Below, in pieces: positions 25,825-25,868 of a stretch of DNA of 64,000 bases; the stretch's first letter is position 1, and every line of letters begins with the position of its first letter. The notes under the pieces were generated by a model. The model did not search any database and had not been told where the DNA came from. It was given only the letters and a program-made list of their open reading frames with translations. This stretch comes from an uncultured Clostridium sp. (GTDB taxonomy: Bacteria > Bacillota > Clostridia > TANB77 > CAG-508): contig USCB01000004.1 in NCBI GenBank assembly GCA_900553125.1, positions 13,027 through 77,026 on the forward strand. Direction: 5' to 3'. A program made the position numbers and the translations under genes.

Positions 25825-25868
25825 GTATTGGGGACGGTTCTTTTCGCGAAAAGAACCGTCCCCAATAC
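25825..25868. repeat. family A GC-rich palindrome (perfect 44-bp)
   Basis: GTATTGGGGACGGTTCTTTTCGCGAAAAGAACCGTCCCCAATAC equals its own reverse complement; lies between the cdsA stop and the rseP-like start. Confidence 0.95.

Follow-up and report, generated by a model that had tools for sequence, protein, structure and literature searches.

Dispersed palindromes between the genes of an uncultured Clostridium, probably REPIN-like, share a core with repeats flanking RAYT genes in related Clostridia

A 64-kb stretch of contig USCB01000004.1 from an uncultured Clostridium sp. (the window, meaning the whole stretch of DNA that was analysed) contains five palindromes of one family, here called family A, together with one decayed arm and three sister elements, all of them intergenic. 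An earlier note on this DNA had singled out the copy between cdsA and rseP and had likened the family to repetitive extragenic palindromes (REPs) and bacterial interspersed mosaic elements (BIMEs), possibly mobilised by a REP-associated tyrosine transposase (RAYT). The five full copies which it listed, at 12262-12344, 25020-25063, 25825-25868, 35208-35251 and 36309-36351, are all present, and the names given to the genes around them (glgP/rnhA, rseP/era, cdsA/rseP, holA/sleB and glycogen debranching enzyme gene/holA) are backed by Pfam. The palindromes lie where they had been placed and extend further than had been described, with arms of 26-31 nt; a half copy exists as well, at 33630-33650 and not at 33633-33658, and the base composition has to be amended from about 55% GC in a 27% GC genome to about 50% for the 44-mer in a window of 28.3%. 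The elements are the following, with the narrower extents first reported in brackets.

12262-12344, no strand: composite element in the glgP/rnhA gap, a family A doublet with a B-type arm nested centrally
25015-25067 (25020-25063), no strand: family A palindrome in the gap between rseP (stop 25068-25070) and era (start 25001)
25819-25874 (25825-25868), no strand: family A palindrome, probable REPIN-like doublet (REPIN, REP doublet forming a hairpin), in the cdsA/rseP gap
28904-28966, no strand: sister family B palindrome with core GGGACCGGGTC in the pyrH/frr gap, outer arms TGTTCCA...TGGAACA
33630-33650, plus strand: decayed single arm TTGGGGACGGGGAATTTTTGG in the tRNA-Met/tRNA-Gln spacer
35203-35256 (35208-35251), no strand: family A palindrome directly after the holA stop at 35258-35260, upstream of sleB
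36299-36360 (36309-36351), no strand: family A palindrome with hybrid flanks in the gap between the glycogen debranching enzyme gene (stop 36363-36365) and holA
52069-52138, no strand: sister family B palindrome with core GGGACCGGGTC in the cdaA/truA gap
54666-54700, no strand: small variant hairpin with core GGGGTCGGTTC (ATTGGGGTCGGTTCTTTTTGACCCCGCAAT on the minus strand) in the gap between the RNase HII gene and the pyrimidine nucleoside phosphorylase gene

The family A, B and C elements number eight, plus the decayed arm, and are dispersed repeats in the sense used for the REP class, at a density of about one per 8-9 kb. The family A core, GGGGACGGTTC, is found in ten exact arms within the window, and when up to two mismatches are allowed the matches rise to 13 against 1.05 expected, a count reached by none of 100 dinucleotide-preserving shuffles. 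A scan of the window for GC-rich inverted 8-mers returned eight sites, seven of which are family A or GGGACCGGGTC sister elements, the eighth being an ordinary terminator.

An alignment of 23 non-redundant copies, from the window and from other low-GC loci, resolves the family A element of about 56-60 bp into two inverted arms of about 28 nt, TTTTTCKNATT-GGGGACGGTTC-YTTTT, which meet in a palindromic centre of 12-13 nt; conservation of the arm ends about 12 nt outside the core, and the palindromes are perfect down to a centre of 0-2 nt. In the cdsA/rseP copy the core arms lie at 25830-25840 and 25853-25863, the 28-nt arms are 96% complementary, and the element is enclosed by the cdsA stop (25875-25877) and the rseP start (25805). 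Its predicted RNA fold reaches -35.4 kcal/mol (z -6.6), compared with -43.1 kcal/mol (z -8.2) for the rseP/era copy, whose 26-nt arms are 100% complementary, -34.9 kcal/mol for the copy after holA, and -40.7 kcal/mol for the hybrid copy, with 31-nt arms that are 94% complementary. Leaving the composite aside, the predicted RNAs form perfect stems of 20-28 bp at -35 to -43 kcal/mol, with z scores between -6.6 and -8.8. The composite itself, as had been proposed, is a family A hairpin which holds at its apex a single B-type arm, AAATGTTCC-ATTGGGACCGGTTCTTTTT-GGGACATTT, and the whole is predicted to fold as one hairpin (-61.5 kcal/mol) whose loop contains the inner core.

The sequences outside the core occur as subtypes (CTGATT, CGTATT, TGAAAT and others) which switch together on both arms. 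Flank changes affecting both sides number 38, whereas shuffles give 17.5 +/- 3 and none of 500 reaches 38; outer-stem cells are paired in 91% of cases against 39-63% when the partners are slid, and compensatory changes are thus what maintains the pairing of the outer stem. Both flank types that had been remarked upon are real, as is the hybrid at 36309, which has CTGATT on its left and AATACG on its right; copies whose arms are of unlike subtype are common. Both the hybrids and the arms of mixed family would fit recombination between copies.

All window copies lie between co-directional minus-strand genes. A family A copy begins 0-4 nt past the upstream stop codon and stops short of the next ribosome-binding site, and if the downstream gene is nearby, 3-10 nt separate the element from the Shine-Dalgarno sequence. 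Such positions cause spurious N-terminal extensions of open reading frames (ORFs), as the note had suspected, ORF 25068-25865 being rseP read through the hairpin ahead of its true start at 25805.

The evidence for a link with mobility comes from outside the window, where inverted arrays of the core, or of a close variant, flank a single gene for a Y1 transposase of the HUH type in seven independent loci (L006, L021, L208, L285-287, L288, L289-290 and Acetoanaerobium noterae). The gene was found through tandem core arrays in L006, a Clostridiales UBA3678 locus of 29% GC, where an ORF of 258 aa matches Pfam Y1_Tnp (E 2.5e-16) and is bracketed by a direct array of four exact GGGGACGGTTC units and two GGGACGGTTC units and by an inverted array of four units. 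In L021 (Oribacterium) and in L208 a homologue is enclosed by core palindromes, and in L088 a fourth member of the family has a single core beside it; three out of three further homologues examined are flanked by the core or a variant of it in the same manner. Upstream of the gene in L288 there are two direct units, one exact and one AGGGACGGTTC, and downstream three inverted units, two of them exact; L289 has GGGGACGGTTC units, four direct and two inverted. The protein of L285-287, at 51% identity, is accompanied by TTTGGGACCGGTTCT arrays carrying GGGACCGGTTC, which is the core of the arm nested in the window composite and is close to family B, and different RAYT lineages are in this way paired with different core variants. 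In the complete 2.63-Mb record of A. noterae inverted AATCATTAGGGACGGTTCTTTTT stands on both sides of the one homologue, and the AATCATTAGGGACGGTTCTTTTT 34-mer is matched at 32 places or more across that record, so that the flanking repeat is dispersed there as well. More distant homologues, at 30-37% identity, in Sporomusa, Legionella, Pseudoalteromonas and Rhodospirillum have flanking inverted repeats which start with (G)GGGTCAG; in Sporomusa and R. rubrum the gene has exact GGGGTCAG on either side, in Pseudoalteromonas upstream only, and Legionella has AGGGTCAG (7/8).

The gene is apparently single-copy and partly syntenic, with the order uvrA-RAYT-recD2 in L288 and L289 and a RecD2-like ORF adjoining it in L006. 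All-against-all clustering of 950 ORFs from 185 loci, restricted to ATG and GTG starts, returned no recurrent neighbour, RAYT being single-copy. Many RAYT homologues were met on contigs of only about 0.9-1.3 kb, which suggests that assemblies break at the flanking repeat arrays.

The structure predicted for the protein (mean confidence, pLDDT, 84.7) supports a RAYT fold, since its best match in the PDB is 4ER8, TnpA-REP in complex with a REP hairpin (E 2.8e-7, root-mean-square deviation 1.9 A over 138 columns), and the transposases of IS608, ISDra2 and IS200 rank lower. A sequence profile of the family has 4ER8 as its sole match in the PDB (E 0.029), and the L006 ORF scores only 16.5 bits against the NCBIfam IS200 model. 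The family is large, with 14,454 cluster representatives at E <= 1e-10. The proteins aligned here are 250-262 aa long and share the motifs CLMSNHVHLV, FQxRF and RYVHxNPxKAG (alignment A1), and the C-terminal tail of some gives weak matches to the helix-turn-helix (HTH) models HTH_28, HTH_23 and HTH_3; these motifs, the length and the C-terminal matches fit RAYT Group 1, also called subclass 2.1 or TIRYT.

TIRtrons, or TIRYT, are RAYT-like genes flanked by terminal inverted repeats (TIRs) which share GGGGWSAS, and the TIR families are moderately abundant, as dimers or clusters (Di Nocera et al. 2013, PMC3733652). The same proteins are subclass 2.1 of TnpA-Y1, with NHVH, FQ or W[EQ], Y[IV]HLNP, a length of about 238 aa and a C-terminal HTH-like domain, and no REP-like sequences were found near their genes (Quentin et al. 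2018, PMC6006769). RAYT Group 1 is again the same group, the most widely distributed one, present in Clostridia, and its flanking 16-mers have only about 12 copies (Bertels et al. 2017, PMC5581495). The clostridial protein agrees with this description in NHVH, FQ, Y[IV]HxNP, its HTH-like tail and its length, except that the Y motif has Q, R or N where the published consensus has L. Its gene is likewise bracketed by inverted repeats beginning with GGGG, the published GGGGWSAS being carried as GGGGTCAG by the more distant homologues, and copies of its flanking repeat, in the form of dimers and clusters, are scattered through the genome too. The clostridial flanks carry GGGGACGG, which agrees with GGGGWSAS at seven of eight positions, or GGGACCGG, and the core, GGGGACGG-TTC(Y), differs from the TIRs in being conserved over 11-12 nt. 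In place of one TIR there are direct arrays of two to five units with a 21-nt period, the density in the window is far above either moderate abundance or some 12 copies, and, unlike what was concluded for subclass 2.1, the clostridial gene does have REP-like sequences, copies of which lie inside operons.

Knowledge of REPs and RAYTs comes almost wholly from Proteobacteria. Family A resembles the REPs, REPINs and BIMEs associated with E. coli TnpA-REP and those of Pseudomonas in being GC-rich extragenic palindromes, enriched downstream of genes and in co-directional or convergent gaps, in forming inverted doublets that yield long hairpins, in its mosaic clusters and, in relatives and other hosts, in the single-copy Y1 gene bracketed by its own repeats, with 4ER8 as the best structural match. 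It differs in that the conserved block lies inside the stem and not at its foot, the 5' GT[AG]G tag is missing, the palindromes are perfect and not bulged, the host is a low-GC member of Bacillota and the enzyme belongs to another RAYT group. With IS200/IS605 insertion sequences the elements would share Y1 HUH chemistry on hairpin-forming single-stranded DNA, by analogy, and a related fold; the RAYT gene is set apart by its low score on the IS200 model, its apparently single copy and its synteny, and it has neither tnpB nor distinct left and right ends. Mycobacterial interspersed repetitive units also occupy short spacers within operons, as family A does; those, however, are not palindromic, consist of direct tandem units of 40-100 bp to which small ORFs are coupled, and are not known to be linked to a transposase.

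Occupancy of the sites was compared among relatives which share the operon pyrH-frr-ispA-uppS-cdsA-rseP-era-recO, with 71-94% identity of RseP. Turnover is high at exactly three junctions, pyrH/frr, cdsA/rseP and rseP/era, and the other three junctions of the operon compared are empty in all loci. The states found are as follows.

cdsA/rseP: window, family A; L105, family B doublet and one additional arm; L280, B-like array of three arms
cdsA/rseP: L120, decayed A copy; L118, L282, L122, L124 and L283, empty
rseP/era: window and L105, family A; L118 and L282, family A into whose centre a further hairpin is nested
rseP/era: L280, single B-like arm together with one A arm; L283, decayed copy
rseP/era: L120 and L122, empty; L124, AT-rich palindrome of unrelated sequence
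pyrH/frr: the same behaviour as at the other two variable junctions

Single arms and arm clusters thus occur in relatives beside empty, decayed and nested states, and the pattern indicates a modular, recombining repeat family with BIME-like mosaics and not a conserved regulatory site. Copies of the same family are also present on five contigs of the metagenome-assembled genome (MAG) UMGS1925 and in Hadza MAGs. Polymorphism within the strain was considered as well; contigs with an identical Era protein are 100% identical to the window and hence uninformative, among them scaffold_227 of ENA contig ERZ28597528, which is identical over 20.9 kb.

Some features of these loci are recorded here in their own right. 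The element which replaces A or B at the rseP/era junction of L124, a more distant relative (10742-10860), is a palindrome of about 100 nt, AT-rich with a GC-containing centre (GACCCGGCTGAGAGACCC). At the same junction in L118 (6153-6240) and L283 (8165-8246) the foot of the hairpin pairs CTCC after the stop with GGAG of the era Shine-Dalgarno sequence, so that the element could mask the era ribosome-binding site, unlike the window copies. Genes with PDDEXK_2 and HTH_Rpn_C domains (Rpn-like nuclease) adjoin the pyrH-recO operon in L120 (5239-5961) and L124 (13027-13845), and L120 has an RVT_1 reverse transcriptase gene at 2015-3127.

The distribution of the core beyond the clade was surveyed by scanning species-representative genomes for GGGGACGGTTC-N(4-20)-GAACCGTCCCC; counts from these collections are lower bounds and do not measure abundance. 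At least 114 loci match, with GC contents of 24-73%, and the phyla among the matches listed include Bacillota, Actinomycetota, Omnitrophota, Bacteroidales, Planctomycetes and Proteobacteria, besides others. Several genomes have multi-copy versions of their own (among them Oribacterium NK2B42, Lachnospiraceae RUG12082, Neobacillus and an Omnitrophota MAG). Because this first pattern itself imposes the core, an internally controlled pattern with two free positions, GGGGNNGGTTC..GAACCNNCCCC, was used: in metagenome contigs the free dinucleotide is AC in 71 of the 120 loci listed, with 10 and 9 in the next classes, as against 1 of the 35 listed for viral contigs, where all dinucleotides are about equally frequent. 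As the stem of a hairpin, GGGGACGGTTC(Y) is therefore strongly over-represented among contigs of bacterial and metagenomic origin with 26-70% GC. The base after the core, which the pattern left free, is T or C in 117 of 123 distinct matches listed.

Among the loci listed for which both flanking genes could be called, the core lies at a median of about 20 nt past the upstream stop codon, and the gaps are co-directional in 75 cases, convergent in 42 and divergent in seven. The spacing from core to core ranges from 4 to more than 20 nt across loci, being 12 or 13 nt within the family. Direct tandem arrays have periods of 21-23 or about 36 nt and are found both by the RAYT gene and elsewhere (L006 4440-4565 and 5690-5790; L027 4808-4990; L022 3063-3150), and in Micropruina a direct array of cores is followed by an inverted one. 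In many genomes each arm is foldable alone, with the core as its loop.

Other origins of the core were tried and set aside. A phage origin was rejected, the core not being enriched in viral contigs; mimicry of rRNA was rejected as well, since the E. coli rrnB operon has six matches against 5.7 expected by chance; and a resemblance to the T-arm of tRNA or to tmRNA, judged by eye (the base after the core is a pyrimidine and TTC is paired), was likewise dropped. A literature search by the spelling of the sequence, as DNA and as RNA, gave unrelated primer matches or none, and no paper giving the GGGGACGGTTC core was found.

The observation made on this DNA is real and reading it in terms of REPs and RAYTs is right: family A is a poorly described branch of the known selfish or domesticated bacterial repeats and does not consist of terminators. 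More specifically, family A probably consists of non-autonomous REPIN-like doublets, their core being the sequence which flanks the Group 1, subclass 2.1 or TIRYT type of RAYT in related Clostridia. The proposal of a REP- or BIME-type repeat, possibly mobilised by a RAYT, accordingly finds support in the dispersed copies, the polymorphic sites, the BIME-like arm clusters, the want of a U-tract and the core-flanked RAYT genes.

If the enzyme works as E. coli TnpA-REP and IS200/IS605 do, it would act on the folded single-stranded repeat, for instance at the replication fork, and would cut and rejoin it, spreading arms and doublets to permissive sites and into existing copies, from which nested and clustered arrays would result. 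Gene conversion or recombination between copies may then mix the arm types into hybrids. In so compact a genome the few nucleotides that separate a stop codon from the ribosome-binding site of the following gene would presumably be the sole tolerated sites, and a copy inserted there would place a perfect RNA hairpin of 20-28 bp in a polycistronic mRNA, where it may incidentally alter decay or processing. A block of 11-12 nt is fixed inside a stem that varies at its foot and apex, and arrays of 21-nt period adjoin the gene; both features suggest a sequence-specific reader, for which the anatomy makes the C-terminal HTH-like domain of the RAYT the obvious candidate.

Several observations weigh against this interpretation. 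The best NCBIfam model for the L006 ORF, REP_Tyr_transpos, scores 69.8 bits, under the cut-off of 80. No RAYT gene lies within the 64-kb window according to tblastn and an HMM search; the search for an associated transposase that the note had called for found such genes, flanked by the core, in other hosts. A RAYT elsewhere in this organism would be what mobilises the window copies, and their cognate enzyme may also have been lost. At the copies, and in the pairs of filled and empty sites, no target-site duplication, insertion motif or exact cleavage site could be defined, and the arm consensus, TTTTTCKNATTGGGGACGGTTC, has no GTAG or GTGG tag at its foot. Adjacency to RAYT was observed in Bacillota loci and one metagenome contig of 50% GC only, so that extending the link to the matches in Actinomycetota, Omnitrophota and high-GC proteobacteria would be an extrapolation, and some matches in other phyla resemble ordinary terminators with A/T tails.

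With regard to the window, the neighbours of uvrA are genes for an SSB-like protein and RNase J and not a RAYT. The gap downstream of uvrA, at 3284-3739, which is the RAYT position of L288 and L289, is non-coding and unusually long (456 nt); neither a core nor a RAYT remnant was detected in it.

The alternative which survives best, although we regard it as unlikely, is that the elements are primarily selected cis-acting RNA structures which punctuate operons, shield the upstream cistrons against 3' exonucleases or serve RNase III or other processing, their repetitiveness reflecting selection for good hairpins. The predicted hairpins are indeed very stable (-35 to -61 kcal/mol, z -5.8 to -9.3), they are always placed between a stop codon and the next ribosome-binding site, the Shine-Dalgarno sequence being free in the window copies, and the same three junctions of the pyrH-era operon hold some hairpin in several lineages, including the unrelated AT-rich palindrome of L124; in addition, for one clostridial operon, intergenic stem-loops reportedly control the processing (PMC10311766). 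However, junctions with the same genes in the same order are empty (cdsA/rseP in L118, rseP/era in L120 and L122), decayed copies persist in L120 and L283, an RNA loop needs no palindrome perfect to a centre of 0-2 nt, and the presence of the same 11-mer on both sides of a transposase gene is left unexplained. A role of the RNA is plausible as a secondary, exapted one and is then compatible with REPIN-like doublets.

Miniature inverted-repeat transposable elements (MITEs), mobilised in trans by a DDE-type insertion sequence through terminal inverted repeats, would also be short, dispersed and polymorphic at orthologous sites, with inverted termini. They are very improbable here because no copy and no filled/empty pair has a direct target-site duplication and no insertion sequence with these ends occurs in the roughly 2 Mb of loci examined; the sole gene recurrently bracketed by the core encodes a Y1 HUH enzyme, and single arms, direct arrays of 21-nt period and nesting at the hairpin centre are atypical of such elements.

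Intrinsic (Rho-independent) or bidirectional terminators have hardly any likelihood left, even though the stems are GC-rich and lie just after stop codons, the core sits close behind the stop with convergent gaps far outnumbering divergent ones in the wider survey, and some matches in other phyla have A/T tails. On both strands a T-run precedes the stem of family A and an A-run follows it, the reverse of terminator polarity, and T-rich tails are found in a minority of core copies across loci. A terminator scan of the window called none of the elements apart from the decayed arm (33624-33641), and the window has ordinary T-tailed terminators at 10138-10158 and 33278-33306. The elements also lie inside tight operons, cdsA-rseP-era for example, where a Shine-Dalgarno sequence follows them at a distance of 3-10 nt. 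Flank polarity and operon context lead us to exclude terminators, in agreement with the earlier note, which had found no U-tract on either strand.

Sites bound by a dimeric host protein, such as a global regulator or a nucleoid protein, are equally hard to credit, for perfect dyad symmetry and a sharply conserved 11-mer recall an operator, whereas the distance between cores, which ranges among loci from 4 nt to over 20 nt, is not what a dimer on duplex DNA would call for, the elements lie after genes and not at promoters, and the cores occur also as direct arrays and single arms.

Returning to REPIN-like doublets, a wider proposal may be entertained, tentatively and with more doubt than confidence: GGGGACGGTTC(Y) might mark a single pan-bacterial REPIN-like lineage which moves between phyla with a Group 1 RAYT, whose C-terminal HTH-like domain would read the core; in uncultured gut Clostridia the elements of this lineage would have become as dense as REPs and been recruited, as RNA hairpins within operons, to give cistrons differential stability. 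A core read by the HTH would explain why it is fixed while the foot and the apex co-vary, and why arrays of 21-nt period flank the gene.

The largest RAYT group, Group 1 or subclass 2.1, described as lacking REPs or as having small repeat families, is now tied to dense hairpin-forming repeats in low-GC gut Clostridia, whose sharply conserved core of 11-12 nt recurs across phyla and makes recognition, that is, which protein domain reads which part of the repeat, directly testable. For organisms represented by metagenomes only, the repeats place very stable predicted hairpins inside essential operons, and besides extending ORF calls they probably cause breaks in assemblies.

Further features of the window are unrelated to these families. 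A perfect AT-rich inverted repeat at 53290-53364 (CAAATCGTAATAAAATCGTTACTGTTCATGGC), with 32-nt arms and an 11-nt loop, occupies the gap between the pyrimidine nucleoside phosphorylase gene and cdaA. Within the minus-strand ORF 20921-22915, which encodes 664 aa and has no Pfam match, a segment of about 685 bp is duplicated at 20938-22054, the two copies being 85% identical and about 440 bp apart in offset. A scan of the window at Rfam gathering thresholds gave no match at the elements and returned only an RT-14 motif, two tRNAs and an L10 leader. The leader, at 63265-63387 on the minus strand, scores 46.2 bits, barely above its gathering score of 44; the RT-14 motif, at 19824-19975 on the minus strand (61.1 bits, gathering score 48.1), does not adjoin a reverse transcriptase and is followed immediately by a gene for a family 2 glycosyltransferase (18438-19667).

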